The translations under genes were made by a program, and so were the position numbers. 64,000 bases of DNA, taken from positions 2,483 through 66,482 of the forward strand of contig CAZHKZ010000003.1 in assembly GCA_964533055.1 (NCBI GenBank), given 5' to 3'. Source of the stretch: an uncultured Gammaproteobacteria bacterium (GTDB taxonomy: Bacteria; Patescibacteriota; Microgenomatia; Levybacterales; UBA12049). The stretch's first letter is position 1, and each line of letters opens with the position of its first letter. The notes beneath the pieces are model-generated. The model ran no database searches. It was given only the letters and a program-made list of their open reading frames with translations, and was not told the origin of the DNA. Below, one piece after another: positions 8,995 through 32,508 of the stretch.

Positions 8995-9015
8995 AGTAGT
9001 ATATAATCAAAATCT

Positions 9016-12937: not shown

Positions 12938-12940
12938 ACA

Positions 12941-13978: not shown

Positions 13979-14023
13979 AGAAGGTTATTGTAGCGTGTGG
14001 TTTTTGTTGATACAAGAAGCAAA

Positions 14024-15724: not shown

Positions 15725-17330
15725 GTCTAATTTTATACAGTATTACTGTAGGTCTATCAAAGATATTAACTGTTTGTTCAAAGCTGAAGATTGGACTATT
15801 TATATAGAGGAGTGAGCACCAGAAGTCACAAGGTGTTTCATAAATCTTCTCAAATCGACCAGAGGTAGTAATCTCATTATAAACAGCATTTCCTTTAGGG
15901 AAGTTTTTTGCATCAACAAGTCGAGTTTTATAAAGTCTCTGACTAGGAAGAATTAGATAGTCTGACTGATCAATCAAAGCGTTATATTTTTCCACTGTAG
16001 ATTCGGGGGAATTATTATCAAGGTCGTAGAAATTAAATAGAGTTATATTGGGATATGCCGAGTTGAAGGGGGTGATTCCGAGATCATAGACCTCAGATAT
16101 GATTGGACTTGTGCTCGGAATTGTTTTGTTGGCAAATGTTAATGCTTGAATTCTTGTATCAGTATCAAAATACACAGTTTTAATAAATGCAAAAGCCCAG
16201 AGCATACATAAAACTCCAATGCTGCCTTCTATAAAGTGCGATCCTTTTTTAGGGAAGAATTTTAGGTTTGAAATCTCGCTTAGACCATAAGCCACACAGA
16301 GGTAGATAAATGGAAGCGTTGGGATGAAGTAACGTGTCCATTGCGCAAATAAAAATGTTTGGGAAAAGAATGTGATCGAGAGAAAGATGAGAAGAAAAAT
16401 GAGCGGGTAGTCGACCCTTTTCCTCAGAGATACTAGGATGAACACAAATGATATTGGAAAGAGTATGGCGAATATCGGGCCAAGAATGAATGGATAAATT
16501 CGCATAATCGGGAAGAGAATTGGTATTGCTGAAAGGAATTCGCCAGTATAAAAAACAATAAGTTTGCCAAGAGCAACATTTGACTCATATGAAATACTGT
16601 TGAGAAAGGATTGGTGATCTAAATACACAAATGGATTCGTGAGTAGGTAGCAGGCTGCAGTTGCAATGAAGATGACGATGGTAGTAAATAATTTTTTATG
16701 AAAAGGATAGCGTTTTTTTAAATAGAGAGCGCCAATAGTTGGGAGAAAAATAATGCTTGAGATTTTAACGCTTATGAGAATTCCAAGTGACACCGCGATT
16801 ATGATTATTGCTTGGCGAGTTGGCTTGTGGAAATATTTGATAAAACCATAGAAGAGAAGTGTTGAGAAGAAGGTAAGCCATGTTTCAAATGTTCCAAAGT
16901 GGGCGTACTGAATTAGGCCAATGCTAAATGTGGAAAAAAATGCAGCGATGAGACCCGTTCGATTATCTTTAAGAAGCTGCCCTATTTTAAAGATAAGATA
17001 GATGGTGCCAATAGATAAAAATGTCGAGAATCCTCGTAAAATAAGAATCGCGTCCTCAAAGCTTACTTGATTAATCGAGGGGTGGTTGTGCATTGTTAGG
17101 AAGTTTTTGAGAAGCCCTGTAAAAAAAGTAAGGTAGATCGGTAGAGATCCATACGCAAAAAAGTGAGGATTAAATTGGTCTGGGTAGGAGAGTCCAGCGA
17201 TGGCGCTTGCAATATTTCTTTCATCGGGATGAAAGAAGAATGGCGATCCCCACGCTAGAGATATCAGTCTAAGTATTGATGCAAGGCATAAAAGTGCGAT
17301 AAGTATTTTTTGAGAATATTTATCCATCAT
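15708..17330 (-). CDS. GT-C fold membrane glycosyltransferase (PMT_2/ArnT-like), paralog 2
   Basis: 540 aa polytopic. FFFHPDERNIAS motif and overall similarity to the 14024..15724 protein. 17 nt overlap implies translational coupling. Confidence 0.6.
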   Translation of the reverse strand: MMDKYSQKILIALLCLASILRLISLAWGSPFFFHPDERNIASAIAGLSYPDQFNPHFFAYGSLPIYLTFFTGLLKNFLTMHNHPSINQVSFEDAILILRGFSTFLSIGTIYLIFKIGQLLKDNRTGLIAAFFSTFSIGLIQYAHFGTFETWLTFFSTLLFYGFIKYFHKPTRQAIIIIAVSLGILISVKISSIIFLPTIGALYLKKRYPFHKKLFTTIVIFIATAACYLLTNPFVYLDHQSFLNSISYESNVALGKLIVFYTGEFLSAIPILFPIMRIYPFILGPIFAILFPISFVFILVSLRKRVDYPLIFLLIFLSITFFSQTFLFAQWTRYFIPTLPFIYLCVAYGLSEISNLKFFPKKGSHFIEGSIGVLCMLWAFAFIKTVYFDTDTRIQALTFANKTIPSTSPIISEVYDLGITPFNSAYPNITLFNFYDLDNNSPESTVEKYNALIDQSDYLILPSQRLYKTRLVDAKNFPKGNAVYNEITTSGRFEKIYETPCDFWCSLLYINSPIFSFEQTVNIFDRPTVILYKIRHEAKH

Positions 17331-17332
17331 AC

Positions 17333-18610
17333 TTATGAAGTAGCTATTCCTGCGATTTTTTTGCCCAACTCAACTGCGTAGTTGGTCCCTCTGTCCCAAG
17401 GGTAGACTTGCTCAATGTTTGCAAGAAAAACGTGCTTTAAGGGTGTCTTAAATGGGGGAATTAACCTTGAATAATTGGTAGGAACAATCGGCTGAGCAAA
17501 AGGAGCTCTGAAGACCTCGAAGTCGATTATGCTTTTTTTATAGTTTTTGTTTATCCTTTTCAGGAGAGGGTCATACTTCTTGAGGAGCTCTTTTTTATCC
17601 ATTGAAAAAAGGTCACTTTTGGGATCAGGATAGTTGCCGACATAGACAATGTGCTCATTAGAAAAATTCTTTTTATCCATGAGGTTAGTGTGCTCGACGA
17701 CCACCATGACCGGTGCATTTTTCTCACATATGCTTAGCCAATAAGAACCATCTTTTATCAGCTGCTCACTTAGTCTAAGTACCATGTTGGTTGCGCCAAG
17801 CCCACGTAGTTTTACGAGCTTTTGCACATATTCTTGTGGAAGTTCCTGAGCGATTTTTAAAAAGAGGAATGAGGGGAGTGTCACGATGACTTTGTCAAAT
17901 TTCTCTGTCTTTGTTCTCGCCCCATTTTTATATGTGACCTCTGCATCTTTACCATCTTTAATCGCTATTGTTTCTGAGTTGAGATGAATTTTCCCGCCCT
18001 TCCCCTGAATATCTTTTGCAAGTGCTTGGGCAAAGTTGAGGAAGCCACCTTCTGGGTATGCAAGAGATGGAGTTCTTTTATAGATTCTAGTCCAGAACCA
18101 AACAAGTGATATTTCTGATGCATATTCACCCATTTTGTTCCGCAATTGTGGTTCCCAGAGCATAGAAAATGCTTTTTTACCCATGGTTTTTTCAAGAAAT
18201 GAGATCGCGTTTATTTTCTCAAGCGGTTTCCAGAAAGGATTTAATTTGAGGAACGCTAGAACGGCACTCATGCGAATCTTGTCAGCGAGTGGTAGCTTTG
18301 GGAAGCGAAGGATGGCAATTGGTGAATCAAGCTGATAGGTTCTGCCATCAATAAAGACAGATGTTTTAGGTCTTTTAATCAAGACTGGGAAGTTTATTTC
18401 TTTGGCTAGAGATAGGACATGTTCATCATTTGTAAACCAGTGATGATAATGCTTCTCCAGACTCCACTTCCATGACTTTTCTTTGTAGCCGATCGCTAGT
18501 CCTCCCGGCTGAGGATCCTTCTCAAGAAGTGTCACATCATTACCCATTTTCAAAAGTTCATGGGCAGCAGCAAGTCCTGTAAATCCTGCGCCAATTATTG
18601 CAATTTTCAT
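17333..18610 (-). CDS. FAD/NAD(P)-binding oxidoreductase (amine oxidase/PPOX/CrtI-like)
   Basis: MKIAIIGAGFTGLAAAHEL...LLEKDPQPGGLA is a Rossmann GxGxxG dinucleotide-binding motif plus the GG motif. Confidence 0.7.
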   Translation of the reverse strand: MKIAIIGAGFTGLAAAHELLKMGNDVTLLEKDPQPGGLAIGYKEKSWKWSLEKHYHHWFTNDEHVLSLAKEINFPVLIKRPKTSVFIDGRTYQLDSPIAILRFPKLPLADKIRMSAVLAFLKLNPFWKPLEKINAISFLEKTMGKKAFSMLWEPQLRNKMGEYASEISLVWFWTRIYKRTPSLAYPEGGFLNFAQALAKDIQGKGGKIHLNSETIAIKDGKDAEVTYKNGARTKTEKFDKVIVTLPSFLFLKIAQELPQEYVQKLVKLRGLGATNMVLRLSEQLIKDGSYWLSICEKNAPVMVVVEHTNLMDKKNFSNEHIVYVGNYPDPKSDLFSMDKKELLKKYDPLLKRINKNYKKSIIDFEVFRAPFAQPIVPTNYSRLIPPFKTPLKHVFLANIEQVYPWDRGTNYAVELGKKIAGIATS

Positions 18611-20052
18611 AAAGTACTTCCTCGCTGCATAAAGAACAACATTGCTCCAATGCCGAGCACAAGAATGGTTATTATACCTGAAAAAACTACATTTGAGCTA
18701 CCCGGTGAGGACATGGTGGGTGATGGGGAAAGTGAAGTTGGCGGTACTGTCGTAGCTTCTGGGCTAGCGCTTGCACTAAGCGTCGGCGAAAGCGTTGGTA
18801 TTACTGTCATAGTAGCTGTTGGACTTACTGAGGGCGCTACGGTTGGAGTCGATTTGGTTGGGTTTGGTGTTTGACTGATAGTTGGAATCGTCGATGGGTT
18901 TGTAGGTGAGACGGATGGCTCAGTAAACTGACTGCCTTCTGCAAAGACGGTAAAATTTCTAGTGATAGTTGTGAGGATCCCCTTACTATTTTTGGTCTTT
19001 ATAGTAATAGTATGGTCGCCAGGGGAAAGATTGCTAGGTGGTCGATATGACCAGATGCCATTTTTATCTGCTTTTACAGATGCGGTGATGGGATCAGAGT
19101 GTATTTCAATAAGAACCTCTTCATTAGGTGCTGATGTGCCTTCAAATTTGGGCTGTTGGTCAGTTAGTTCTTCCTTGTTGTCTGGGCTTACGATGGCTGG
19201 TTCTGCTGGGAGATCCTCAACTGCACTAAATGATGGAAACGCATTATCATCAACCTGAGCGGATTCAGTCGATATAGGAGTTGCGTTAGGATCGCTGCTG
19301 TCTACGGTGAAATCATAAATGTTTGAGAGTGTTATCTTAGGAACAGGATTGATTTGGGCCGGAAGTAGCGAGACTCGGGAAGTCAGAGTTGGACTTTGAA
19401 ACAATAGCTTGATGATAGAAGAGTCTTTGAATGCCAGATAACTACCAAAGTCGCTCGTTCGAAGTGCGTTAAGTGGAAGTACAAAACTTCCATTCGGCTT
19501 TGTAAGAGTTGAAAGCATCTGTGCACTGTCTGTTACGAGGAACACCATGACACTATCATCGGTAGATCCATCAGGATATGCTGCGCTTCCCACGATTGGA
19601 GCTTGGCGCGATGGCTGCTGGGTGATTGTTGAAAGGGTCTTGATACTGAATGGCTTCTTGCCCTCATCCTGAAAAACTTTATCTGAGGAAAGGATCGTAT
19701 AGTAATAGGTGGTCTCAGGCTTTAAGTTGCGAAGCGTTATATGGTGTACGTTGTATTGTTTTGGAGTACCTGACTGCTGGTCACGATCATCAAGTGCCAC
19801 TTTCCCTCTATCAACACCCTCTCCATAAGAAAGCGATCCCAAAACCTTTTCATCAGTTATGTAGGAAATGGTGAATGATGTGTCAGTTTGATTACTGATC
19901 CTTATTTGCTTAGGGGTGTAAGCAGGAGATGCATTTGTAAGTAAGAGTAAATCACTCCTGAGGAGTATCGACACAGTCACGAGTCCAATTCCTAGGAGGA
20001 TAAGCCCAAGAAGTGTTGGAATTCTCTTATGAAAAAATGATGAATTGTTCAA
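18607..20052 (-). CDS. membrane-anchored surface protein (FN3/PAP-N-like domain, Ig-like domain, Pro/Thr/Ser linker, C-terminal TM)
   Basis: N-terminal signal/anchor. TSFTISYITDEKVLGSLSYGEG...TTYYYTI resembles the FN3-like N-domain of purple acid phosphatases, with no phosphoesterase motifs. DKNGIWSY Ig-like motif. PT-rich tail and a terminal hydrophobic helix. Confidence 0.5.
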   Translation of the reverse strand: MNNSSFFHKRIPTLLGLILLGIGLVTVSILLRSDLLLLTNASPAYTPKQIRISNQTDTSFTISYITDEKVLGSLSYGEGVDRGKVALDDRDQQSGTPKQYNVHHITLRNLKPETTYYYTILSSDKVFQDEGKKPFSIKTLSTITQQPSRQAPIVGSAAYPDGSTDDSVMVFLVTDSAQMLSTLTKPNGSFVLPLNALRTSDFGSYLAFKDSSIIKLLFQSPTLTSRVSLLPAQINPVPKITLSNIYDFTVDSSDPNATPISTESAQVDDNAFPSFSAVEDLPAEPAIVSPDNKEELTDQQPKFEGTSAPNEEVLIEIHSDPITASVKADKNGIWSYRPPSNLSPGDHTITIKTKNSKGILTTITRNFTVFAEGSQFTEPSVSPTNPSTIPTISQTPNPTKSTPTVAPSVSPTATMTVIPTLSPTLSASASPEATTVPPTSLSPSPTMSSPGSSNVVFSGIITILVLGIGAMLFFMQRGSTL

Positions 20053-20363
20053 AGTTCGCCTCCTTGAAGCGCAGAAGTCGTTCCTGAATTTTCAGGTGGC
20101 GTATCTAGCGGGAGCGTCTCAGTTGCACTGGGTGTTGCTTGTTCATCCGCAGATATTTTTCCATCTATCTGCTTTCTCTTCTTGAGAGAATTTATGACAT
20201 CGGTGTTGAATTTAGGATCGATTTCTTCGATGGATGCGTTTACCCTCTGGGAAATGGTTGAAGTTATTGCTTTTGTATATATCGCAACTGCAATCCAGAC
20301 TATTACCACAATAACTGATGGAACAAGGATGTAGAGTAGATTTTTTTGTGTTTTTTTATTCAT
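20049..20363 (-). CDS. small bitopic membrane protein
   Basis: 104 aa. One N-terminal TM, then a polar ST/P-rich tail. ATGA overlaps with both neighbours. Confidence 0.4.
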   Translation of the reverse strand: MNKKTQKNLLYILVPSVIVVIVWIAVAIYTKAITSTISQRVNASIEEIDPKFNTDVINSLKKRKQIDGKISADEQATPSATETLPLDTPPENSGTTSALQGGEL

Positions 20364-20365
20364 AG

Positions 20366-20983
20366 TTATGGCATATAGAATACTTTTGCCTGAAGGTATA
20401 GCCTGTATCCGTTAAGTTCTGTTGGGACCTGGAGAGAAATATTTTTGAAGGTTAGTAGGCGATCAAAATTAGTGATCTCAGTATAGAAATTGATCAGGTT
20501 GTCATATTCTCCCTGGGCCCCGATGATCATGTTAAATTGTGCCAGTTCGCCAACAGTAGCGGGCTGACTTAATGGGATGTTTGTGATCTGGAGCTGACTT
20601 AAGAAAACATTGTTGTCATTTGCGATTGTCCTCACTTTTGCAATAAGACTTGGCCCACTTGGCTCATTTGGAATTGCGGCATTTATATATTTCAGGTCTG
20701 ATGTAATTTGTGAATATTGACTTGAGAGATTGCTAAGGGAGGTGATCTTGACAGCAAGCTTGTCATGGACGAACTTGCTATCATCAAGTCTTTTTTGTAG
20801 CTCAAATATTGTGGTAAGTGTGGGCATGATCGCAAAAATAGCAAAGAAGATGAACGCAAAGAGTGACAAAATTATCGTTGCATAGTTCTGTGCTTTTTCC
20901 TCGCGAAGATTGATTTTTGAGCGAACTAGCTCGAGATATTTTTGTTTTGATAAATTAGTAAAGAATTCTTTTGATACTTTCAT
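20366..20983 (-). CDS. type IV pilus assembly PilO-like protein
   Basis: Short cytoplasmic N-terminus, one TM (ATIILSLFAFIFFAIFAIMP), a coiled-coil segment, then a C-terminal domain. Start set at the internal Met (20981-20983) lying 4 nt after the PilN stop (TAATATG). Confidence 0.45.
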   Translation of the reverse strand: MKVSKEFFTNLSKQKYLELVRSKINLREEKAQNYATIILSLFAFIFFAIFAIMPTLTTIFELQKRLDDSKFVHDKLAVKITSLSNLSSQYSQITSDLKYINAAIPNEPSGPSLIAKVRTIANDNNVFLSQLQITNIPLSQPATVGELAQFNMIIGAQGEYDNLINFYTEITNFDRLLTFKNISLQVPTELNGYRLYLQAKVFYMP

Positions 20984-20984
20984 A

Positions 20985-21569
20985 TTATTTCCCTTGATTT
21001 GGCGGCAACGTCTCTTTGCCGCCTGTTTCTGGTAGAGTGATCTCTGCCGAGATCTGGGCGTCAATATCAGCAGTCTCAGTCTTGTTATCAATCCGATCGA
21101 TGCTTACTGTTGAGAGCTCTTTGAGGTTTTGAAGTGAGGTTACATATTTCTTAAGCGTCGCAACATCGGGGGCGGAAACAGTGAGCGAGATGCTCTTTTC
21201 ACCCAGTTGAATATTCGTGAACGTGATTGGGCTTTGCGTCAGTCCTGCGATTTTAGTAAAGATCTGCGGCGCAGCTTTTGACGCTTTATCTATAACCGAT
21301 GCATGGGTTAATTTGCTGATTAACACCCGGTATTTCGATTCATCTAGGGAAGATGCTTCAACGATCACACCTTGAGCTTTGATTTTGTCACTATAGTCAA
21401 CTATTTGCCTGTCTAGGTTGAATCTATAGAGGAACGCGCCAAGTGCAATTGTCTCAGTGAGAATGACTAAGAATCTGCCGCCTGTGATTGCCCATTTAAC
21501 AAATACATCAAGTGAAGTGGAATTCTGTTTTTTTATGAGATTGATTCGTAATTGAGCTTTGTTATCCAT
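20985..21569 (-). CDS. type IV pilus assembly PilN-like protein
   Basis: N-terminal LRINLIKK resembles the PilM-binding INLLP motif. One TM, periplasmic coiled-coil, then a ferredoxin-like region. 194 aa. Confidence 0.5.
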   Translation of the reverse strand: MDNKAQLRINLIKKQNSTSLDVFVKWAITGGRFLVILTETIALGAFLYRFNLDRQIVDYSDKIKAQGVIVEASSLDESKYRVLISKLTHASVIDKASKAAPQIFTKIAGLTQSPITFTNIQLGEKSISLTVSAPDVATLKKYVTSLQNLKELSTVSIDRIDNKTETADIDAQISAEITLPETGGKETLPPNQGK

Positions 21570-21702
21570 GGCAGAAGGATCGTAGTTACTTCATCCCAAA
21601 TTTAATCGGGAAACGCAAAAAAAAGCTGAAGCTTTTACCAGCCTTATTTCAGTCTAGGTATTTAGGAGAAAAATGTCAAAGAAATTCGTAGCTATTTTCA
21701 TC

Positions 21703-21731
21703 TGGAAAGAGCGAGCAGAGTGTGGTATACT
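21703..21731 (+). promoter_or_regulatory. putative extended -10 promoter for fusA (TGG-TATACT)
   Basis: TGGTATACT at 21723-21731 with a weak -35 TGGAAA 17 nt upstream, about 45 nt before the fusA ATG. Confidence 0.35.
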
Positions 21732-21776
21732 AAGTTTCGTTCGAAATCGCACAAGCGATCTTCGGATTTTTACTAT

Positions 21777-23885
21777 ATGGCTGAAAAGACACAAAAAGTT
21801 ACACTAGACAAGATCCGCAATATTGGAATTATCGCGCATATTGACGCGGGTAAGACCACTACCACTGAAAGAATTCTTTTCTACACAGGCAGAACATACA
21901 AGATTGGAGATATTGATGATGGTAATACTCAGATGGACTGGATGGAGCAGGAGAAAGAGCGAGGAATCACCATTGTTTCTGCTGCAACAACCACATTCTG
22001 GAAAGATCACAGAATCAATATTATTGATACGCCAGGCCACGTAGATTTTACTGCTGAAGTTGAACGCTCACTACGCGTACTTGATGGCGGTATTACCGTC
22101 CTTGATGCCGAAGAGGGAGTTCAATCCCAGTCAGAAACAGTGTGGAGACAGGCTGACAAGTATAAGGTTCCACGTATTTGTTTTGTCAATAAAATGGACA
22201 AGCTCGGGGCAGACTTTCTTGCAACAGTAAAGAGTATCGAGGATAGGCTTGGTGCAAATCCTGCAATTATGGTAATCCCAATTGGCGCAGAGGATACTTA
22301 TGTTGGTAACGTTGACCTTCTTTCTAGGCAGTCAATCATCTGGAATTCAGAAGAGCTTGGCGCAACATTTGAAGTTAAGGATGAAGTTCCTGAAGACTTG
22401 AAGGCAAAGGTTGAGGAATATCGCTCAAAGCTTATCGAGAAGATCTCCGAAACAGATGATGCGCTTCTAGAAAAGTACCTTGGCGGTGAGGAGCCAACCG
22501 TGGAGGAATTAAAGAAAGCTCTTCGAGCTGCAGTTATTTCCTACAAGCTCGTTCCTATTTATGCAGGCACATCGCTTCGCAATAAAGGTGTTCAGCCGCT
22601 TCTTGATGCTGTTATCGACTATCTTCCATCCCCAGTTGATCTTAAAGAGGTAAAGGGAATTAATCCAAAGACAGAAGCTGAGGAGATTCGCCAACTCGTT
22701 CCTGATGCGCCATTTAGTGGACTTGCGTTTAAGATTCAGAATGATCCTCACGTTGGTAAGCTCACATATTTCCGTGTTTATTCTGGTCAGATTAATTCTG
22801 GATCATATATCTACAACAGTACAAAGGGCGTAAAAGAAAGAGTTGGAAGACTCTTAATGATGCATGCTAATGAGCGTGAAGAAATCAAAGAAGGATATGC
22901 TGGAGAAATTGTAGCTATTGTTGGGCTTAAGGATACTGGTACTGGCGATACGCTTTGTGACGAAGCAACCCCAATTGTTCTTGAAAAAATCTCATTCCCA
23001 GACCCTGTTATTTCTCTTGCGATTGAGCCTCAGACAAAGTCAGATCAGGAAAAACTTGGCTATGCGCTTAAGCGTCTAACTGAAGAGGATCCAACATTCT
23101 CAGTTAAGTCCAACCCAGAAACAGGTCAGACAATCATTTCAGGTATTGGCGAGCTTCAGCTCGAAGTTATGGTTGATCGTATGAAGAGAGAGTTTAATGT
23201 GATTGCAAATGTTGGTGCTCCACAGGTTGCGTACAAAGAATCTTTTGCAAATACAGTTCAGGCAGAAGGTAAATACATTAAGCAGTCCGGAGGACGTGGA
23301 CAGTTCGGACACTGCTGGCTTCGTGTTGAGCCAAAGGCAAGGGGCGAGGGCAATGAGTTTGTGAGCGAGATCAAGGGTGGAGCTATTCCAGCTGAGTTCG
23401 TTCGCGCAGTTGAGAAGGGTGTTTGGGAGACGCTTGAAAATGGAGTTCTTCTTGGATATCCAGTAGTTGACGTTAAAGTTGCCTGTTATGACGGTTCATA
23501 TCATGATGTCGATTCATCTGAGGTAGCATTTAAGATCGCAGCATCACAGGCATTGCAAGCTGCATCAAAGATGACAGAGATGAATCTCCTTGAACCTATC
23601 ATGAAGGTCGAGGTTACAACTCCATCTGAATTCATGGGAGATGTAATGGGAGATCTTTCAAGTAAGAGAGGTCAGATCTTGGGAACTGAGGAGCGATCAA
23701 GAGCTACTATCATTAACGCGCTTGTGCCACTTTCTGAATTATCTGGATATGCAACACAGATCAGATCTATGTCCCAAGGTCGTGCGAGTTACTACATGGA
23801 ACCAAGTCACTATGATGTTGTGCCACGAAATCTCGTTGAGCAAATGGTTGCAAAGTCTACCTTCACAGGTCGCGTCGAAGCATAA
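21777..23885 (+). CDS. fusA: elongation factor G
   Basis: [32 protein letters not shown]. Start trimmed to MAEKTQK at 21777. Confidence 0.95.
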
Positions 23886-23924
23886 AGTTGCACTTATCTC
23901 CCCCGTTCGCTACTATACTTTCTC

Positions 23925-24986
23925 ATGAAAAAGATCCGCGTTGGTATTCTTTTTGGCGGGCAGTCTGCTGAGCACGAGGTCTCTATCCGTTCGGCTAAGA
24001 ATGTCTATGATGCTCTTGATAAGTCTAAGTATGAGCCAGTTCTCATTGGCATTAGCAAAAAAGGCGAATGGCTCACCCTTCCTACCACATATTTTCTTCA
24101 AGGAGATTCAAAAGAATATGCGTTACCTGAAAAATCATCTCCTCAAACACCTCTTTCAGTAGATATTGTTTATAAGCAAAATATTGATGTTGTTTTCCCA
24201 GTCTTGCATGGGCCGATGGGTGAGGATGGGACCGTACAGGGAATGCTCAAACTCCTAGGCATTCCATTTGTAGGTCCAGGAGTGTTGAGCTCGGCCGTTA
24301 GCATGGATAAAGATGTAGCAAAAAGATTGCTGCGTGATGCGGGAATCCCAATCGTTCCTTTCCTCGTATTTCGATACTTAGAAAAGGGAAAGATCTCATT
24401 TGAGGCAATAAAAAAGGGGCTAGGTCTTCCCTTTTTCGTAAAGCCTGCCAATCTAGGCTCATCTGTTGGAGTATACAAGGTTCACTCAGAAAATGAATTT
24501 GATAATGCTATCAAAGATGCTTTTGCATATGATCAAAAAATCTTAATTGAAAAAGGAATAAATGCACGTGAAATTGAATGTGGCGTGCTTGGAAATGAAG
24601 AGATGAAAGCGTCGGTACTTGGAGAGATCATTCCACACCATGAATTTTATGACTATGCTGCAAAATATCTCGATGAAGAAGGGGCAGGTCTGCAGATTCC
24701 GGCAGAACTGGCACAAGAGCATGTAAAAATGATCCAGGATTTGGCGATAAAGACATGTAGGGCATTGGGGGTTGAGGGGATGGCGAGAGTAGACTTCTTT
24801 TTAGACAGAGATACCTCGGAGGTCTATGTAAATGAGATAAATACGATCCCAGGCTTTACGAGTATAAGTATGTATCCTAAGTTGTGGCAAGAAAGTGGAG
24901 TGTCCTACCAAGAGCTGGTTAATCAGCTGATCTCGCTTGCGATGGCTCGACAAAGTCGTGAAGATAGCCTAAGCACAACAAGATAA
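23925..24986 (+). CDS. ddl: D-alanine--D-alanine ligase
   Basis: RVGILFGGQSAEHEVS N-terminus, ATP-grasp core, C-terminal EINTIPGFT. Confidence 0.9.
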   Translation: MKKIRVGILFGGQSAEHEVSIRSAKNVYDALDKSKYEPVLIGISKKGEWLTLPTTYFLQGDSKEYALPEKSSPQTPLSVDIVYKQNIDVVFPVLHGPMGEDGTVQGMLKLLGIPFVGPGVLSSAVSMDKDVAKRLLRDAGIPIVPFLVFRYLEKGKISFEAIKKGLGLPFFVKPANLGSSVGVYKVHSENEFDNAIKDAFAYDQKILIEKGINAREIECGVLGNEEMKASVLGEIIPHHEFYDYAAKYLDEEGAGLQIPAELAQEHVKMIQDLAIKTCRALGVEGMARVDFFLDRDTSEVYVNEINTIPGFTSISMYPKLWQESGVSYQELVNQLISLAMARQSREDSLSTTR

Positions 24987-25015
24987 TTGTTCCCCTATGC
25001 TACAATTGTCGATAT

Positions 25016-26188
25016 ATGGCGCGAAAGAAAATTAGTGAATTTAAGGCAAAGAGTCTCGTGCTTTCAGCATTAAGTATCCCCTATCAAGGCATCTCTCTTC
25101 AAAAAGGTGATACCACTCCCCTCTCATCGCTTGATGAAAATAAGAAATATGTTCTCAAAGTGGATCAGGGTATTAAGAAGCGATTCAAGCTCGGTCTTGT
25201 TGCTCTTAATATCTCAAAGACTGAAATTGAGGGCGTAATGAATGACTTGGCTGAGAAAGGATATCAGTCTTTTATTCTTGAGGAGTATTTAGAGCATGAT
25301 CAAAAGGAGGAGCGATATCTTTCATTTGAGAGAACAAGGGACGGAATCACGTTTATGGCTTCAAGAAGCGGCGGTGTCACAGTTGAAGACAATATGGGCC
25401 AAATTAAAAAGTTTACTCTCCCTCATCAGACACATGATGCGGCTGAATATCTGGAGCTACCTGAGGATATTTTACGCAAGATTGTTCAATGCATGGATAG
25501 GCTTCATATCTCTTTTCTTGAAATTAACCCACTTGTTGTTAGCAATAATGACCTCACTTTTCTCGATATGGCGATTGAGGTTGATGATGCGGGAGAATTT
25601 TTCGTTGAGAAGGCTTGGGTCTCTGAGGATTTTGTAGTTGAGGCAGGTAGCAAGACAAAAGAAGAAGAGGCTATTGAGGAATTGTCATCCAAGAGTCAGG
25701 CATCATTTAGGCTCGTGGTCCTCAATCCGAATGGGTCAATATTTATGCTACTTTCTGGAGGTGGAGCGAGCATTGTGTTAGCAGATGAGGTTTATAACGT
25801 CGGTCAAGGCAAAGAGCTCGCTAATTATGGAGAGTATAGTGGCAATCCAAATGCAGAGGAGACATATCTCTATACAAAAGAGATACTAAGCCTCCTTTTA
25901 TCATCCAGTGCGAGTAATAAAAAGCTGATAATCGCAGGTGGAGTTGCTAATTTTACCGATATTCGCATTACGTTTAAAGGAGTGATCAAGGCAATTGCTG
26001 ATGTAAAAACAATGCTTTCAGAGCAGGGTGTCAAAGTCTTCGTCAGACGAGGTGGCCCATTTGAAAAAGAGGGGCTACAGATGATTGAAGACTTTCTCAA
26101 AAAAGAAAACCTCTATGGATTTGTTACTGGCCCAAATCTCCCTTTAACAGAGATAGTTGAGAAAGCGATAGGTGGTGCTCATGCTTAA
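25016..26188 (+). CDS. aclB: ATP-citrate lyase, ATP-grasp (beta/AclB-type) subunit
   Basis: Collinear with the N-terminal half of eukaryotic ACLY. Shared blocks: KISEFKAKSLVL, VLKVDQGIKKRFKLGLVALN, LEINPLVV, LLSGGGASIVLAD, ELANYGEYSGNP, IIAGGVANFTDI, FKGVIKAI, VFVRRGGP. Confidence 0.85.
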   Translation: MARKKISEFKAKSLVLSALSIPYQGISLQKGDTTPLSSLDENKKYVLKVDQGIKKRFKLGLVALNISKTEIEGVMNDLAEKGYQSFILEEYLEHDQKEERYLSFERTRDGITFMASRSGGVTVEDNMGQIKKFTLPHQTHDAAEYLELPEDILRKIVQCMDRLHISFLEINPLVVSNNDLTFLDMAIEVDDAGEFFVEKAWVSEDFVVEAGSKTKEEEAIEELSSKSQASFRLVVLNPNGSIFMLLSGGGASIVLADEVYNVGQGKELANYGEYSGNPNAEETYLYTKEILSLLLSSSASNKKLIIAGGVANFTDIRITFKGVIKAIADVKTMLSEQGVKVFVRRGGPFEKEGLQMIEDFLKKENLYGFVTGPNLPLTEIVEKAIGGAHA

Positions 26189-27983
26189 CATAGAAGAACT
26201 TCGAAAGGCAGACATTGGCATTCTTTTTATCGGAAGCCACCCAGGTATTATCCAGTCAATATTGGATTTTGACTATTTGTCCGGTAAGTCTGCTCCAAGC
26301 GTCCTTGCTGTTATCGCGACAAATAGGAAGTACGAGAAGTATTTTTTTGGTTCGAAAGAGGTGCTCATCCCCGTTTATGAATCGTGTTCTGCGATCCCAG
26401 AGTCTCGCTCAAAAGACATAACATTGTTTTACAATGTTACATCAGCAAGAAGAGTACTGACTTCTTCAAAGGATGCGTTCTTGACGATTCCGTCAATTAA
26501 GCTTGGAGTTATTTTTGCAGAAGATGTTCCAGAGGAGCACTCGCTACTTTTGCGTGACTTCATTCTTGAGAGAAAGAAGACCTTGTTGGGTCCAGCAAGC
26601 GTTGGTCTTTTATTGCCAGGAATTCTAAAGTTAGGTGCGATTGGTGGCGTTGACTATAGACAGTTGATAGCCTCACATGTCTTTGAGATGGGCGATACAG
26701 CAGTCTTTTCTGCCTCAGGAGGAATGACAAATGAGATTATTCGAATTGTATCGCTTAATCAGAAGAGGCTGAGTTTTGCTCTTTCATTTGGTGGAGATCG
26801 CTTCCCAGTTCTTACCCCGGAAGATGCATTTTTGGCAGCTGAGAATGATCCTGCTACAAAAATGATCGTTTATTTTGGTGAACTAGGAGGGACCGATGAA
26901 TATGCCCTCATTGAGCTTATGAGGGAGAAAAAAATCACAAAGCCAATTGTCTGCTATATCGGTGGAGTAGTAGCTGAACTTTTTGAGACTCCCCCACAGT
27001 TTGGACACGCAAAAGCCATGGCGCAAAAAGGAGAGGAAACAGCTCGGGCAAAAAGAGATGCACTGAGGATGGCGGGTGCGAAGGTGGCGGAGTCATTTGC
27101 TGACTTTATTGAATATATTGGCAAGGGTGAGGTTTCAAAAGATTCTGAATTTGAGTATACTAACCGTATGGACGACTTACAGGATCGCAAGCATGCGCTC
27201 ATAACAACAACAATTTCAAATGATGAACGTGGAGAAGTACAGGTGCTCGGAGAGCCTCTTCTAAACTTTGTCTCAAGTAGGCCATTTGCTTCAATTGTAA
27301 GTTCGATGTTCTTGGGTAAAAAAACAATCTCTAAAGAACTTGAAGAATTTGTAGACTTTACTCTAAGGCTTCTAGTTGAACATGGCCCATATGTTTCAGG
27401 TTCTGTTAATACAATTGTGACGGCAAGAGCAGGTCGCGATCTCGTCTCATCCCTCGCTACAGGCCTCCTGACAATCGGGCCACGCTTTGGTGGAGCCATC
27501 AATCAAGCAGCAAGTAATTGGATTGCTGGAGTAAAGGACGGGAAAGATCCCAGTGAATTTGTCGAAGAATTTGCGAGCAAGAAAGAATATATCTCAGGCA
27601 TTGGACATCGAAAGTATAGGGTCGATGCTCCAGATCCTCGTGTAGCAAAATTACTCTCATTCACAGACTCACTTACTGAGAAAAAATATAGCTCTTTTGC
27701 GAAGAGCGTTGAGAAGGTCACTGTGGCAAAAAAAGGCAATCTTATTCTCAATGTCGATGGTGCGATAGCTGCTATTCTTTTGGATATTCTTTCTGAGAAA
27801 GAAGGTATGAAGACCGAGGAGTTGGATAATCTAGTAAAGACAGAGTTTTTTAACGCCCTCTTTGTCCTTTCAAGGAGTGTTGGATTTATCTCTCACTTCT
27901 TAGATCAAAAGAGAATTGATGAAGGCCTTTTTAGACTTGATGAAGAGCATGTTACTTATGCAAAGGACCTCTTTAACGAATAG
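26172..27983 (+). CDS. aclA: ATP-citrate lyase, CoA-binding/phosphohistidine + citryl-CoA lyase (alpha/AclA-type) subunit
   Basis: LDFDYLSGKSAPSVLAV, KEVLIPVY, KPIVCYIGG, catalytic His motif QFGHAKAM. The C-terminal citrate-synthase-like domain has HGPYVSGSVNTIVTARAGRDLVSSLATGLLTIGPRFGGA, GIGHRKYR, NLILNVDG, FVLSRSVGFISHFLDQKR. 17 nt overlap with aclB. Confidence 0.85.
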   Translation: MVLMLNIEELRKADIGILFIGSHPGIIQSILDFDYLSGKSAPSVLAVIATNRKYEKYFFGSKEVLIPVYESCSAIPESRSKDITLFYNVTSARRVLTSSKDAFLTIPSIKLGVIFAEDVPEEHSLLLRDFILERKKTLLGPASVGLLLPGILKLGAIGGVDYRQLIASHVFEMGDTAVFSASGGMTNEIIRIVSLNQKRLSFALSFGGDRFPVLTPEDAFLAAENDPATKMIVYFGELGGTDEYALIELMREKKITKPIVCYIGGVVAELFETPPQFGHAKAMAQKGEETARAKRDALRMAGAKVAESFADFIEYIGKGEVSKDSEFEYTNRMDDLQDRKHALITTTISNDERGEVQVLGEPLLNFVSSRPFASIVSSMFLGKKTISKELEEFVDFTLRLLVEHGPYVSGSVNTIVTARAGRDLVSSLATGLLTIGPRFGGAINQAASNWIAGVKDGKDPSEFVEEFASKKEYISGIGHRKYRVDAPDPRVAKLLSFTDSLTEKKYSSFAKSVEKVTVAKKGNLILNVDGAIAAILLDILSEKEGMKTEELDNLVKTEFFNALFVLSRSVGFISHFLDQKRIDEGLFRLDEEHVTYAKDLFNE

Positions 27984-27986
27984 GAT

Positions 27987-28727
27987 TTGATGTTAGAAGA
28001 AAGTCTACACTCCCAAGAAGATCCTCAAAGACTCATCGATTCTTTCGTGCGTCCGATCTGGTATCACGAACTTTTGACTGATCAGACTCGGAGTCTGCGA
28101 GATCAAGCAAAAACAGGTGTAGAAGATGTACTCATGGGTAGTCATATTGGGCTCGATTCTGTGATTGCAATTCCAACAGGAGGCTCCCGTTGGACACTAG
28201 AAGGCAATGATCCGATTCATTATCAATTTCTTTTTCTAGATGACGCACCTCCATTAGATGATGTGAGGCACGCACTTACAGATAATTGGATATTGCCTCG
28301 AGATTGGGATAGTTCTGAGCGTGCAATCAGCCACTTGGAGAGATCAAATGCACTTAAAGCTCTTATGATTACTCCAGATGATTTTGTTGTAGGCAACGTA
28401 GAAAAAGCAAGAGAGCTGCGATTGAAGGCCTTGAAAAAAGGTGGTAAAGGCTGGTGGCATGATGGTGTTACAGATTACGTGGATAAGAAGGTCAATACAT
28501 GGGGGAAGCCTAAGAACGATTTAGATATGGGTAAATTGAGATTTAGGCGAGCTTTGGATCAGAGACTTGCTGGAGAGTCGTCTCCAAAAGAGTGGGAGAA
28601 GGGGTTTTTTGAGAGACTAAAGAATAGGAGAGTTCCAACATACTCGGAATACTCGCATGCGCTTGAGCAGCTCGGAGGAGCAATAGATTGTCCAGAAAAT
28701 CGCAATATTGTCGATCCTCACGTATAA
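27987..28727 (+). CDS. hypothetical soluble protein, translationally coupled to aclA
   Basis: 246 aa, no TM, no motif I recognise. Starts 4 nt after the aclA stop. Confidence 0.5.
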   Translation: MMLEESLHSQEDPQRLIDSFVRPIWYHELLTDQTRSLRDQAKTGVEDVLMGSHIGLDSVIAIPTGGSRWTLEGNDPIHYQFLFLDDAPPLDDVRHALTDNWILPRDWDSSERAISHLERSNALKALMITPDDFVVGNVEKARELRLKALKKGGKGWWHDGVTDYVDKKVNTWGKPKNDLDMGKLRFRRALDQRLAGESSPKEWEKGFFERLKNRRVPTYSEYSHALEQLGGAIDCPENRNIVDPHV

Positions 28728-28736
28728 TACGAGTGT

Positions 28737-29825
28737 ATGAGGCGTCTTCTCATTGGTATTATTCTGCTGGTCATCGCTGCGTTATCCGTCTTTCTAAGTC
28801 TTAGATTTGTTCGGTCAAAAATTGACAGCATTATGACTTCACCTTCTAGCGTGCTCTCATCTCCTACTCCAGGGGTTAAGGCTATCCCCACAACTCGCTC
28901 TGACTCATCGCTCTTTGTGCCCTACTGGACCTTGGATGAGGGAAATTTTGCTTTGGATCCGTACAAAAGCTATATCTATTTTGGTATCACATCTGGGAGT
29001 GATGGTATCAATAAACAAGAAGATGGCTACAAGAATCTGAAGACGTTCTCTAAGGCTGCATCCGGCAAGCGAACGCTTTTGGCCCTGAGGATGATTGATA
29101 ATAAGGTCACAACGCCCGTCCTTAAGGATAAGAAGAAGCAGGAGAAGATCATCAATGATGCTATTTTTGTCGCACATGAGTTTGGTTTTGACGGGATAGT
29201 TATGGATCTTGAGGTATCAGGACTTCCTTTTACCTCATTGATAGATCAAATTACATCTTTCAACAAGGATTTTTACGAAAAAGCCAAGGCAGCAAGGCTG
29301 AGTTATAGCATTACTGCGTACGGCGATACATTTTATCGGGTAAGACCATTCTCAATTGAAGAGCTTGAGAAGTCATCAGACATGATCTATGTCATGGCGT
29401 ATGATTTTCATAAAGCCAATGGTAATCCTGGTCCCAATTTCCCCCTAGCAGGGTCTGATACGTATGGATATGACTATAAGCGGATGGTGGGGAGCTTTTT
29501 GGATGCTGTTCCTGCTCACAAGCTCACTTTCATATTTGGTATGTATGGCTATGATTGGGTGATTGATGAGGGTGGTAAGGCAAAAGATGCTGGAACTGCT
29601 ATTTCTCTCAAAGAGACGAATGCATCTCTTCTTGATGACTGCAATTATACTACTTGTAAGTGGGAGAGGGAGGGTGGCTCATCTGAAATTATGATTGAAT
29701 ACTCGGACGGCGATACAAAACATATTGTTTGGACTGAGGACGAAGAATCGACTAAGCGCAAGAAGGAATATCTTCAGAAAATGGGCATAGGCTCATTTGC
29801 CTACTGGGCCTACTCGTATTTTTAG
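28737..29825 (+). CDS. membrane-anchored glycoside hydrolase family 18-like protein
   Basis: N-terminal TM. (beta/alpha)8-type motif FGFDGIVMDLE aligns to the GH18 DGxDxDWE motif with the catalytic Glu retained. MAYDFH and YWAYSY motifs. Confidence 0.6.
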   Translation: MRRLLIGIILLVIAALSVFLSLRFVRSKIDSIMTSPSSVLSSPTPGVKAIPTTRSDSSLFVPYWTLDEGNFALDPYKSYIYFGITSGSDGINKQEDGYKNLKTFSKAASGKRTLLALRMIDNKVTTPVLKDKKKQEKIINDAIFVAHEFGFDGIVMDLEVSGLPFTSLIDQITSFNKDFYEKAKAARLSYSITAYGDTFYRVRPFSIEELEKSSDMIYVMAYDFHKANGNPGPNFPLAGSDTYGYDYKRMVGSFLDAVPAHKLTFIFGMYGYDWVIDEGGKAKDAGTAISLKETNASLLDDCNYTTCKWEREGGSSEIMIEYSDGDTKHIVWTEDEESTKRKKEYLQKMGIGSFAYWAYSYF

Positions 29826-29862
29826 GCACGTTCATGCCTAGAAATAGGGGTGTTTAGGGTAT

Positions 29863-29890
29863 TGACGCTTTTTCTAGAATGTAGTATCAT
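29863..29890 (+). promoter_or_regulatory. sigma70-type promoter upstream of tuf (TTGACG-17-TATCAT)
   Basis: -35 TTGACG 29863-29868, 17 nt spacer, -10 TATCAT 29885-29890. Confidence 0.45.
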
Positions 29891-29900
29891 ACACCTAATC

Positions 29901-29930
29901 TCATTAAAACAAATGAGGTCTTTTTTTTCG
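29901..29930 (+). terminator. hairpin plus U-run in the tuf 5' leader (putative attenuator/terminator)
   Basis: CTCATT-aaaacaa-AATGAG stem-loop followed by GTCTTTTTTTT. Lies between the promoter and the tuf ATG at 29951. Confidence 0.4.
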
Positions 29931-29950
29931 GAAAAAGATACAATAAAGAT

Positions 29951-31129
29951 ATGGCAACATTTAATCGCAACAAACCACACGTAAATATCGGAACCATCGG
30001 TCACGTTGATCATGGTAAGACTACAACTACAGCAGCTATTGCTACCGTTCTTTCAAAGCATGGCGGTGGAGAAGCTAAGAAGTACGAAGATATTGATAAT
30101 GCACCAGAAGAAAAAGCACGTGGCGTTACGATTAATATCTCCCACATTGAGTACGAGACAGAAAATCGTCACTATGCTCACATTGACGCTCCAGGACACG
30201 CAGATTACATTAAGAACATGATCACTGGTGCGGCTCAGATGGACGGCGCAATTCTCGTTGTTTCTGCTCCTGATGGTCCAATGCCTCAGACAAGAGAGCA
30301 CATCCTTCTTGCACGCCAAGTTGGTGTTCCTTCAATCGTTGTTTATCTCAATAAGTGCGACATGGTAGATGATGAAGAGCTCCTAGACCTCGTTGAGATG
30401 GAAATTCGTGAGCTTTTGACTAAGTATCAGTATCCTGGAGATACAACTCCAATCATCCGTGGCTCATCTCTTAAAGCACTCGAAGGCGATGCAGCTTATG
30501 AAGCAAAGATTATGGAACTTATGAAAACTGTTGATGAGTATGTTCCAACTCCAGAGCGAGATCTCGACAAGCCATTCCTTATGCCTGTAGAGGATGTTTT
30601 CTCTATCAAAGGTCGAGGAACTGTTGTAACGGGAAGAGTCGAGAGAGGCGTTATTAAAGTTAACGAGCCTATTGAAATCGTCGGTATGAAAGCTACAGCT
30701 AACTCAGTTGTTACCGGTGTTGAGATGTTTAGAAAGCTCCTTGATCAAGGTCAAGCTGGAGACAACGTTGGATTACTTCTCCGTGGAGTTGAAAAAGAAG
30801 ATGTAGAGCGTGGACAAGTGCTTGCTAAGCCTGGTTCTATTACTCCACACACAGATTTTGAAGCTGAAGCATACATCCTTACTAAAGAAGAAGGCGGACG
30901 TCACACTCCATTCTTCAAGGGGTATCGCCCACAATTCTACATTAGAACGACAGACGTTACTGGATCTGTTGAATTGCCAGCAGGTGTTGAAATGATTATG
31001 CCTGGAGACAATACAAAGATGAATGTTTCACTCATCGTACCAGTTGCTTTAGAAGAAGGTCTCCGATTCGCTATCCGTGAGGGTGGACGAACTGTTGGAG
31101 CCGGGGTTATCTCAAAGATAATCAAATAA
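29951..31129 (+). CDS. tuf: elongation factor Tu
   Basis: [21 protein letters not shown], full-length 392 aa. Confidence 0.95.
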
Positions 31130-31189
31130 ACCTTTCTGACTTTTGTCTGATTGGTAGCACGTTAACTGTTTGTTAAAGAAAGATACATT

Positions 31190-31498
31190 ATGCCAAAAGG
31201 AAGAATTCGTGTTCGCTTAAAAAGTTATGATGCGAGAGTCATTGACTCTACGTGTCAGCAGATTTTAGATACGGCTATTAGAACCGGAGCTAAGATAGTG
31301 GGCCCAGTTCCTCTCCCTACAGCTAGAAGTCTCTACGCAGTCAATAAATCTCCTTTCGTTGACAAGAATGCTCGAGATCACTTTGAAATTAAGGTGCACA
31401 AGCGTCTTATTGATATCATTTCTCCGACAGACAAAACAATTGATAGCCTTACTCATCTGGAATTGCCAGCTGGTGTAGATGTCGAAATTAAGATGTAG
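31190..31498 (+). CDS. rpsJ: 30S ribosomal protein S10
   Basis: MPKGRIRVRLKSYD..., 102 aa. Confidence 0.95.
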   Translation: MPKGRIRVRLKSYDARVIDSTCQQILDTAIRTGAKIVGPVPLPTARSLYAVNKSPFVDKNARDHFEIKVHKRLIDIISPTDKTIDSLTHLELPAGVDVEIKM

Positions 31499-31565
31499 GA
31501 CACCGCGTTCTACAATACAATAATGCCCGAAATGGAAAAAATAAATATTAGTATGAGGTAAAGAA

Positions 31566-31633
31566 AGCCTAAAAGGCTCACATCGTGAGAGTGAATTGAA
31601 AGATAGCCTACAGGCTATCTTTTTTTGATTTTA
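31566..31633 (+). terminator. cluster of three hairpins ending in a U-run between rpsJ and rplC (terminator/attenuator)
   Basis: AGCCTaaaAGGCT, CTCACatcGTGAG and GATAGCCtacaGGCTATC followed by TTTTTTTTGATTTT at 31621-31634. rpsJ and rplC are normally contiguous. Confidence 0.45.
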
Positions 31634-31635
31634 GT

Positions 31636-32508
31636 ATGAACACATTTATAGGAATAAAAGTTAAGCAGACACAAGGATTTTTAGAGAACGGGAACAGAAC
31701 GCCTATTACAGTCGTTAATGCCCCAGATGTTTTCGTGGTGGGGACAAAATCAGTTGAAAAAGAAGGCTATAATGCTGTGCGCATCGGCTTTGGAACTGCA
31801 AAAAAGCCAACAAAAGCGATCATGGGCATTGCAAAGCTTGCAAATATGGCTGTAGCTCCACGAAAGATCGTTGAGGAGAGGCTCTCAGATGCTCCTACAC
31901 AAGAGTTAGGCGCAACTATTAAGGTAGATGAGGTTCTTAGCATCGGCGACATCGTAGATGTCACTGGTGTTTCTAAGGGTAAGGGATTTGCTGGTGGCGT
32001 TAAGCGATATGGATTTAGGGGTGGACCTAAGACACACGGTCAGTCAGATAGGCATCGTGCACCAGGATCTATTGGTTCAGGAACAACCCCAGGACGCGTC
32101 TACAAGGGTAAGAGAATGGCAGGAAACATGGGCAAAGAGCAAGTCACTGTTAAAAACCTTACTGTTATCGACCTGAATGCAGATGAAAAGACCATCATGA
32201 TTGGTGGACTTGTTCCTGGAATTATGGGAGGAACAATCTCAATTACAAAGGTTGGAGAAGTAAAGGAAAAGAATTTCTCACCACTTTTTAAGATCGTAGC
32301 TGATGCTCCAGTCGAAGAGACAGTATCTGAGCCAGTTATTGAAGACGCAGCAGTCGCAGAATCTCAGCCAGAGGCTGATCGTCCTTTGGACGAAGTTGAG
32401 GAAGCTGTTGTAGCTCCTGAAGCAGAGTCAGTAGTTGAAGCTCCAGTTGAAGCTGAGTCTGAGGAAGTTAAAGAAGAAGTAAAGCTTGAAGAGGAGGAAG
32501 CTAAATAA
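31636..32508 (+). CDS. rplC: 50S ribosomal protein L3 with ~75 aa acidic C-terminal extension
   Basis: L3 core (GKGFAGGVKRYGFRGGPKTHGQSDRHRAPGSIG). C-terminal tail rich in E/A/V/P. Confidence 0.9.
   Translation: MNTFIGIKVKQTQGFLENGNRTPITVVNAPDVFVVGTKSVEKEGYNAVRIGFGTAKKPTKAIMGIAKLANMAVAPRKIVEERLSDAPTQELGATIKVDEVLSIGDIVDVTGVSKGKGFAGGVKRYGFRGGPKTHGQSDRHRAPGSIGSGTTPGRVYKGKRMAGNMGKEQVTVKNLTVIDLNADEKTIMIGGLVPGIMGGTISITKVGEVKEKNFSPLFKIVADAPVEETVSEPVIEDAAVAESQPEADRPLDEVEEAVVAPEAESVVEAPVEAESEEVKEEVKLEEEEAK

Follow-up and report, generated by a model that had tools for sequence, protein, structure and literature searches.

Evidence for an early dismantling of the str operon in Levybacteria and for gene turnover between fusA and tuf

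We analysed a 64-kb stretch of DNA (contig CAZHKZ010000003.1; hereafter the window) whose host belongs to Candidatus Levyibacteriota, a lineage of the Microgenomates group within the candidate phyla radiation (CPR, Patescibacteria), and in which the translation-factor genes fusA (EF-G) and tuf (EF-Tu) stand apart with five other genes between them. It is probable that the canonical str operon was dismantled long ago in this lineage and that the fusA-tuf space is a hot spot of gene turnover made up of independent units. The gene identities, the synteny with its variable content, the native composition, and the conserved promoter boxes and leader hairpins on which this rests are directly established.

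An earlier, sequence-only reading of the window had placed ddl, aclB, aclA, a hypothetical protein and a GH18 hydrolase, about 6 kb in all and on one strand, between fusA and tuf. All of these calls hold when examined with NCBIfam and Pfam models, with 6,065 nt between the stop of fusA and the start of tuf:

21777-23885, + strand: fusA, EF-G (TIGR00484, 1062 bits against a cut-off of 659; start ATG 21777)
23925-24986, + strand: ddl (NCBIfam D-Ala-D-Ala ligase models above cut-off; NF002525, 458 bits against 457)
25016-26188, + strand: aclB, ATP-citrate lyase (ACL) beta subunit (citrate-binding and ATP-grasp domains; PF16114, E 2.4e-55; PF24948, E 1.6e-27)
26181-27983, + strand: aclA, ACL alpha subunit (CoA-ligase plus citrate-synthase-like module)
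27990-28727, + strand: protein of 245 aa (245-246) without family match in NCBIfam or Pfam
28737-29825, + strand: GH18 hydrolase (PF00704, E 1.3e-19)
29951-31129, + strand: tuf, EF-Tu (TIGR00485, 749 bits)
31190-31498, + strand: rpsJ, 60 nt 3′ of tuf (preceded in relatives by GGAGG, resembling a Shine-Dalgarno (SD) sequence)

The fusA product scores below the cut-offs of the EF-G2 models, which marks it as a canonical EF-G. The aclA start is likely ATG 26181 rather than GTG 26172, and a TTG start for the 245-aa open reading frame (ORF) was rejected in favour of ATG 27990. All five intervening genes lie on the + strand, and the gaps along fusA-ddl-aclB-aclA-245-aa ORF-GH18 are 39, 29, −8, 6 and 9 nt. 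The absence of rpsL and rpsG upstream of fusA, also noted in the earlier reading, extends further: tblastn found neither rpsL (S12) nor rpsG (S7) in the 64 kb of the window or among 93 related loci, and the upstream neighbour of fusA is a divergent PilO-like operon. Downstream, tuf heads a co-directional tuf-S10-spc-alpha array reaching to 47775 (rpsJ, rplC and rplD, later SecY, Adk, Cmk, Map, RpoA, L17, L13 and S9), within which the gene table of one relative (L007) has the usual S10-spc gene order. Of the features that define the canonical str arrangement, the locus thus keeps the passage from tuf into the S10 operon and has neither rpsL-rpsG before fusA nor fusA-tuf adjacency.

The 93 loci were collected by exact-protein look-ups of EF-G and AclA homologues together with a GH18-anchored metagenome scan, annotated by tblastn with the window proteins and viewed with flanks of ±10 kb. 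Wherever an EF-G or AclA homologue has a named source, the name is Levybacteria or Patescibacteria, and a genome scan with AclA returned a Levyibacteriota metagenome-assembled genome (MAG; 96% identity) as well as two MAGs of Patescibacteria type (63-66%). One relative, L003 (contig CAYRJZ010000001.1), is titled 'uncultured Gammaproteobacteria', yet with an EF-G 86% identical and Levybacteria-like synteny it is probably mislabelled. In all 10 relatives showing both genes, fusA and tuf are non-adjacent (gap 1.4-11.3 kb; EF-G 73-92% identical), with contents as follows:

L007/L008, EF-G 84%: GH18; gap 1.36 kb
L026, EF-G 78%: about 1.2 kb without gene assignment, then GH18; gap 2.3 kb
L005, EF-G 90%: PIG-L, GH18 and three reverse-strand genes; gap 5.3 kb
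L011, EF-G 92%: ddl, PIG-L and GH18, no acl; gap 3.9 kb
L006, EF-G 85%: ddl, aclBA, ICMT (reverse), PIG-L and GH18; gap 6.8 kb
L003, EF-G 86%: ddl, aclBA, NUDIX, ICMT (reverse), PIG-L, an ORF without assignment and GH18; gap 7.8 kb
L045, EF-G 90%: a stretch without assignment, ddl, aclBA, GH18 and about 3 kb without assignment; gap 10.9 kb
L093, EF-G not scored: aclBA, murB, a small ORF, GH18 and NUDIX; gap 6.1 kb
L089, EF-G 73%: CPDase (reverse), aclBA, murB, nine more genes and PIG-L; gap 11.3 kb

A split shared by all sampled relatives indicates an old trait of the lineage and not a recent insertion. The sequence-only reading had proposed an insertion or rearrangement that brought metabolic and cell-wall genes into a core translation locus; the departure from canonical order and the presence of such genes inside the locus stand, whereas a recent insertion does not, since fusA and tuf are contiguous in none of the ten relatives and their common layout is what that reading itself had named as the mark of an ancestral arrangement. 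GH18 is present in nine of the ten, being missing in L089, and a further locus (L013) has the order aclA-murB, then PIG-L, then GH18-tuf. In relatives with the layout fusA, acl/ddl/GH18, tuf, AclA is 63-71% identical to that of the window. The closest relative by AclA (L002, 96% identical) carries between GH18 and tuf a gene for a 1391-aa SNF2-helicase/methyltransferase (5635-9810, − strand) that the window lacks, so that the hot spot appears still active at strain level. The three reverse-strand genes of L005 also lie between GH18 and tuf. In eight loci the region upstream of fusA is occupied by the divergent PilO-like/Big_13/amine-oxidase/PMT_2 cluster. Homologues of GH18 that fall under about 46% identity reside for the most part at other sites, and 24 loci have at least 3 kb on both sides and no elongation-factor gene nearby. 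In rough neighbour-joining trees the acl-bearing loci include the deepest branches (L089, L013) and the acl-less loci are nested among acl-bearing ones. This suggests that acl has long resided here and was lost repeatedly, which is more likely than its being a newcomer.

In the arrangement that we propose, fusA would stand alone behind its own promoter and leader, facing the divergent pilus-like and cell-envelope cluster, and rpsL and rpsG would be placed somewhere beyond the 64-kb window. Behind its own strongly conserved sigma-70-type promoter, tuf would head the tuf-S10-spc-alpha array, and the space between the two genes would hold small, independently transcribed wall and precursor-supply units (GH18, PIG-L, ddl, murB, aclBA) gained or lost between relatives. 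As the contents vary gene by gene, and ddl, aclB and GH18 each have a −10 box of their own (see below), the five genes are not one inserted block.

The promoter and leader of tuf, described in the sequence-only reading as TTGACG-17-TATCAT followed by a hairpin and a U8 tract, were located as follows:

29862-29890, + strand: tuf promoter, TTGACG (29862-29867), 17-nt spacer, TATCAT (29885-29890)
29898-29919, + strand: tuf leader hairpin, starting 7 nt past the −10 box
29921-29928, + strand: U8 tract

A bare scan for the promoter consensus found 21 promoter-like sites against 22.8 expected, which is not above chance; the significance of the tuf promoter therefore comes from its conservation in relatives. 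In 13 of 13 loci the −35 box is TTGACG, the spacer is 17 nt and the −10 box is TATNNT, and in the same loci a hairpin begins 5-10 nt past the −10 box and is followed by U5-U8, 8-22 A-rich nt and the ATG. The stem of the window has 8 bp, of which two are G-C and one is G-U, and a predicted stability of about −6 to −7 kcal/mol. Across the loci six unrelated stem sequences occur, and the fold is kept in all (5′ arm / 3′ arm):

window and close relatives: ATCTCATT / AATGAGGT
L007: GTCGCAG / CTGAGAC
L093: TCGTCGC / GCGGCGA
L013: AACCTTT / AAAGGTT
L026: TTAGCCT / AGGCTAA
L089: CACACC / GGGTGT

The alignments thus reveal structural conservation of the tuf leader despite complete replacement of the stem, and in the set of close relatives by itself pairing is seen in 98% of cells, versus 35-49% for slid partners. 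The hexamer TACAAT at 29939-29944, 6 nt before the tuf ATG and so at leaderless-type spacing, was considered as the real tuf promoter and rejected, since the window and L002 have it and no other locus does; it may represent a young second promoter or a fortuitous match. As a separate observation, the motif TTAGCCTCA occurs in several relatives at a distance of about 45-50 nt on the upstream side of the tuf −35 box (L003 15387-15395, L004 6487-6496, L005 ~17290-17300, L007 ~13340-13350) and is not clear in the window; the L005 copy is part of an inverted repeat.

Comparable elements precede fusA, the divergent operon and rplC:

21703-21731, + strand: fusA promoter-like element with extended −10 TGgTATACT
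21739-21771, + strand: fusA leader hairpin (−12.3 kcal/mol, z −4.15) without SD; its terminal U5 lies 5 nt ahead of the ATG
21617-21679, − strand: leader of the divergent pilus-like operon, TTGACA-17-TAGACT (21679→21651), hairpin 21645-21622, U8
31499-31635, + strand: rpsJ-rplC spacer, with hairpin 31598-31623 and a U-run, 9 nt before the rplC ATG

At fusA, the −10 box TATACT is invariant, with TG one base upstream, in every locus (five aligned plus L011 and L045); the stem sequence varies among relatives, the hairpin is always present and U5-8 ends 2-5 nt before the ATG. These elements suggest separate conserved promoters for fusA and tuf. The first gene of the divergent operon starts at 21569, and the blocks AGTCTA and GTCAA of its leader are invariant in the alignment. 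The rpsJ-rplC spacer measures 130-140 nt in all relatives and contains the invariant blocks ATGCCC and AAGCCTAAA..GGC, its hairpin (AGGTAGCC/GGCTATCT) being conserved in sequence and followed by U7-9; we regard it as a candidate ribosomal-protein leader or attenuator. Rfam gave no match within 21400-32000 at E ≤ 1, and at gathering scores one tRNA only in the whole window.

None of the leaders of fusA, tuf, rplC and the divergent operon has a consistent SD. With a probability somewhat below even, we read their design at fusA, tuf and rplC as a 5′-terminal stem that would stabilise the mRNA and a U-run with an A-rich stretch that would replace the SD. Transcription would be expected to start about 7 nt past the −10 box, at the foot of the stem, where a flush 5′-terminal stem-loop would guard against 5′-end-dependent decay, and the U-run and A-rich stretch would form an unstructured ribosome landing site, for which the U-rich enhancer of Escherichia coli rnd and the SD-less tuf mRNA of Mycoplasma genitalium offer precedents (PMC7769764). 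RNase Y is encoded in the window, and CPR bacteria keep RNase J (PMC12641178).

It is less likely, and on balance we doubt, that the tuf hairpin and U8 form a working intrinsic terminator, which would attenuate the tuf-S10-spc array close to its promoter or shield it from GH18 read-through instead of serving mRNA stability or translation. The stem of 8-10 bp with U7-8 has the appropriate shape and was picked up by terminator-type scans, similar elements stand before fusA and rplC, and for the S10 operon of E. coli, a ribosomal-protein operon, attenuation at a leader terminator is established. However, the stem is rich in A and U and of low stability (−6 to −10 kcal/mol), the −10 box is too close to it to leave space for an antiterminator, there is no alternative pairing partner upstream, and tuf should rank among the most highly expressed genes. 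Moreover, the element persists in L002 and L005, in which an opposite-strand gene stands upstream of tuf and no co-directional gene precedes it, indicating that it is not simply the terminator of GH18.

Within the interval, the 40 nt before gene starts point to several transcription units. When all starts of the window were compared, internal genes of the ribosomal array had GGAG-type motifs, and many first genes had a TATAAT-like box and no SD. Of the 76 window genes, 17 have such a box with its end 5-11 nt ahead of the start, compared with 2.65 ± 1.56 at random positions, and none of the 17 has an SD (examples at 1025, 3260, 5378(−), 9016, 12941(−), 37763, 49521 and 55287), which suggests widespread leaderless transcripts in this Levybacteria genome; our literature search returned nothing specific on leaderless genes in CPR. 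The boxes of the interval are:

23914-24986, + strand: ddl with −10 box TATACT, 5 nt before the ATG
25001-26188, + strand: aclB with box TGcTACAAT, 9 nt before the ATG (conserved in L002, L003, L006 and L045)
28723-29825, + strand: GH18 with box TATAAT, 8 nt before the ATG, overlapping the stop of the 245-aa ORF

At ddl, aclB, GH18 and PIG-L the −10 boxes are conserved in relatives at the same distance. From sequence we infer that those at ddl, aclB and GH18 fire and that their transcripts are leaderless. The aclA gene overlaps the end of aclB by 8 nt with AGGTGG upstream, and the 245-aa ORF starts 6 nt past aclA behind TAGGA; this overlap and spacing make aclB-aclA-245-aa ORF look like one unit. 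The interval would then comprise three units, namely ddl, aclB-aclA-245-aa ORF (the downstream genes being translationally coupled) and GH18, each behind a leaderless-type promoter.

That fusA through GH18 instead form one long operon, in which read-through from the fusA promoter would co-regulate wall synthesis with translation, is improbable. The single strand and the short gaps given above would suit such an operon, but the conserved −10 boxes right before the ddl, aclB and GH18 starts speak against it, as does the free shifting of gene content among relatives, some of which have reverse-strand genes in the interval.

Less probable still is that this fusA is a second EF-G copy beside cell-wall genes, with a canonical rpsL-rpsG-fusA elsewhere and nothing split here. 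The remainder of the genome is out of view and many bacteria have two EF-G genes; in Pseudomonas, for example, one is reported to lie in and one outside the str operon (PMC3832671). Against a second copy stand the equivalog EF-G score and the failure of the EF-G2 models reported above, and the maintenance across the clade of both position and 73-92% identity, always upstream of the sole tuf seen. In addition, CPR genomes are small.

That a 6-kb block was recently inserted, or horizontally transferred, into a host genome with fusA and tuf still joined is very unlikely. The order is indeed non-canonical and the interval genes are functionally unrelated to translation, but the layout is common to relatives down to 73% EF-G identity, and the interval content changes gene by gene and not as a block. 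The composition is native and gives no transfer signal: GC content of the five genes is 0.41-0.44 (window gene mean 0.408 ± 0.023), their codon-usage distance is 0.107-0.175 (mean 0.173 ± 0.043), and the tetranucleotide distance of the interval ranks 15 of 59 windows, the GC content at third codon positions of GH18 (0.444) being the sole mild outlier among these measures. Direct or inverted repeats flanking the interval, sought as insertion scars, gave chance-level matches only, and no mobile-element genes were found at the interval. An assembly or binning chimera of unrelated pieces, to which the metagenomic source and the Gammaproteobacteria label of L003 might point, can practically be dismissed, because an independent Logan assembly has the identical locus, the junctions are found again in independent Logan, NCBI and JGI assemblies, and composition is uniform.

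Several points weigh against the reading of an old break with turnover of independent units. The view consists of the 64-kb window and the flanks of the related loci, so that the age of the break is a lower bound. The trees are rough, and pairwise identities of AclA and EF-Tu correlate with r = 0.50 only. From fusA to GH18 there is no hairpin with a T-run, and the short gaps allow read-through. As to the tuf leader, a hairpin with U7-8 also fits an intrinsic terminator, and covariation in the close set is modest, with one pair double-changed and 59-68 of 500 shuffles reaching the observed values.

The ACL genes of the interval have recognisable counterparts in solved structures. Along its whole length AclA can be aligned with the ACLY-B chain of Methanosaeta (6hxi_B, 375 bits), a better match than the Chlorobium AclA chain (6hxj_B, 237 bits), the AclA motifs QFGHAKA (phosphohistidine loop), GIGHR and NVDG aligning with those of 6hxi_B and the lyase His and Asp being kept; the 6znw chain has NVAG at the place of NVDG. 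AclB scores 202-206 bits to human and Methanosaeta ACLY. Homologues of AclA fall into more than 120 clusters at at least 61% identity, and the few that are named at NCBI come from Levybacteria under the label 'hypothetical protein'. The neighbours of aclBA are murein-precursor genes in 12 of 12 loci with visible flanks, in three genomic contexts:

aclBA beside ddl: six loci
aclBA beside murB: L013, L089, L090, L091 and L093
aclBA followed by a NUDIX/GNAT gene and then lysC-dapB-dapA-asd: L092

Together with the genes that follow it, aclBA lies at 1356-5319 in L089, 8814-12781 in L090, 8717-12817 in L091, 8789-12811 in L093 and 8829-17014 in L092, and in L090, L091 and L092 it follows greA, away from fusA and tuf. 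The CPR host is not known to have a tricarboxylic acid (TCA) cycle. From the gene linkage we infer that ACL supplies acetyl-CoA and oxaloacetate to wall precursors: it would split scavenged citrate into acetyl-CoA, destined for UDP-N-acetylglucosamine, and oxaloacetate, destined for aspartate, diaminopimelate and possibly alanine. A role of ACL as peptidoglycan feeder would explain why aclBA lies beside ddl, murB or lysC-dapB-dapA-asd. That ACL is, in Levybacteria and related Microgenomates, a dedicated peptidoglycan feeder with no part in a carbon-fixation cycle, and that the promoter/hairpin/U-run/SD-less design is at the same time an undescribed lineage-wide expression signal, is a speculative proposal that we hold to be rather doubtful. 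Our literature search found no report of ACL in Levybacteria; aclAB is enriched in another CPR class (PMC12577380).

GH18 carries one membrane helix at its N-terminus and contains the motif DGIVMDLE, and its best solved structures are of the Bacillus YdhD/SleL/YaaH type (3cz8, E 2.9e-09; 4s3j; 4s3k). Like YdhD, it keeps the D-x-E of the catalytic motif and is without the upstream Asp of the full motif. Unlike these Bacillus enzymes, which are cortex and peptidoglycan hydrolases, it has no detected LysM domain, bears a membrane helix and comes from a non-sporulating host. The 245-aa protein shares 31% identity over its C-terminal half with the ORF that directly precedes GH18 in L003. It has no Pfam match at E ≤ 1, and a relation to PIG-L, which fills its place in relatives, was rejected for want of similarity. 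The region 3787-21569, mostly on the − strand, encodes FemAB, LytR-CpsA-Psr, DUF2298, an epimerase, three PMT_2 proteins (one TPR/PMT_2), an amine oxidase, Big_13/fn3 and PilO-like proteins. These FemAB, LytR-CpsA-Psr, DUF2298, epimerase and PMT_2 genes place fusA in a cell-envelope neighbourhood, and the cluster is conserved in relatives. An assignment of this minus-strand cluster to nuo or mrp from ORF sizes proved wrong, the genes being PilO-like, Big_13, amine-oxidase and PMT_2 genes.

The ribosomal array has some peculiarities of its own. L3 (31636-32508) has 290 aa, the bacterial L3 model spanning residues 4-203 only, and measures 264-308 aa in relatives; L4 (32486-33280) has 264 aa with the domain beginning at residue 68, so that both proteins are extended. 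The cmk gene (42023-42718) lies between adk and map inside the spc/alpha array, and rplM-rpsI directly follow rplQ (46859-47775).

The gene-order event itself is ordinary and adds a CPR example to the pattern of a translation cluster that is invaded and then widens. It also carries a caution, in that an operon order differing from that of E. coli in a deep-branching lineage does not amount to a recent insertion unless relatives are compared. Its by-products may matter more: a conserved strong tuf promoter and leader in an uncultivated phylum, a lineage that mixes leaderless, SD-led and hairpin/U-run-led genes, and a consistent linkage of ACL with murein-precursor genes in organisms thought to be without a TCA cycle. 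Of more interest than the split are two leads, the association of ACL with murein genes and the leader design that recurs.

Among known systems, the two-subunit ACLs of Methanothrix/Methanosaeta (ACLY-A/B, 6hxi) and Chlorobium limicola (AclAB, 6hxj) are alike in domain order and catalytic motifs; in contrast to these, the Levybacteria aclBA sits in a CPR host beside ddl, murB or dap genes and not beside genes of the reductive TCA cycle. Breaks of translation clusters by a few inserted genes, followed by further separation, have been described in Gammaproteobacteria and Bacilli (PMC8046335; PMC6735719), known cases being bfd-bfr or ilv-leu between str and S10 and nrdHEF inside rpoBC (PMC8046335). 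The likeness is that unrelated genes enter a core translation cluster and more then accumulate. The Levybacteria break differs in lying inside str, between fusA and tuf, rather than between operons, with rpsL-rpsG detached too; the CPR phylum is outside the coverage of those studies, and the interval is unusually variable. Rickettsia prowazekii and Mycoplasma genitalium have reduced genomes with unlinked fus and tuf. As in Levybacteria, tuf is there apart from fusA and has its own expression signals, the M. genitalium tuf mRNA having no SD and an A/U-rich enhancer instead (PMC7769764). Unlike in these reduced genomes, tuf of Levybacteria is linked to rpsJ and lies 1.4-11 kb from fusA on the same strand, behind a leader with a defined hairpin and U-run. 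In the E. coli rnd leader, a U-tract reportedly follows a terminator-like stem-loop between promoter and start codon. This tract, which precedes a weak start region, is reported to be required for translation (Zhang & Deutscher 1992, as cited in PMC7769764). The Levybacteria leaders have no sequence relation to that of rnd, and in this clade the design recurs at several genes.

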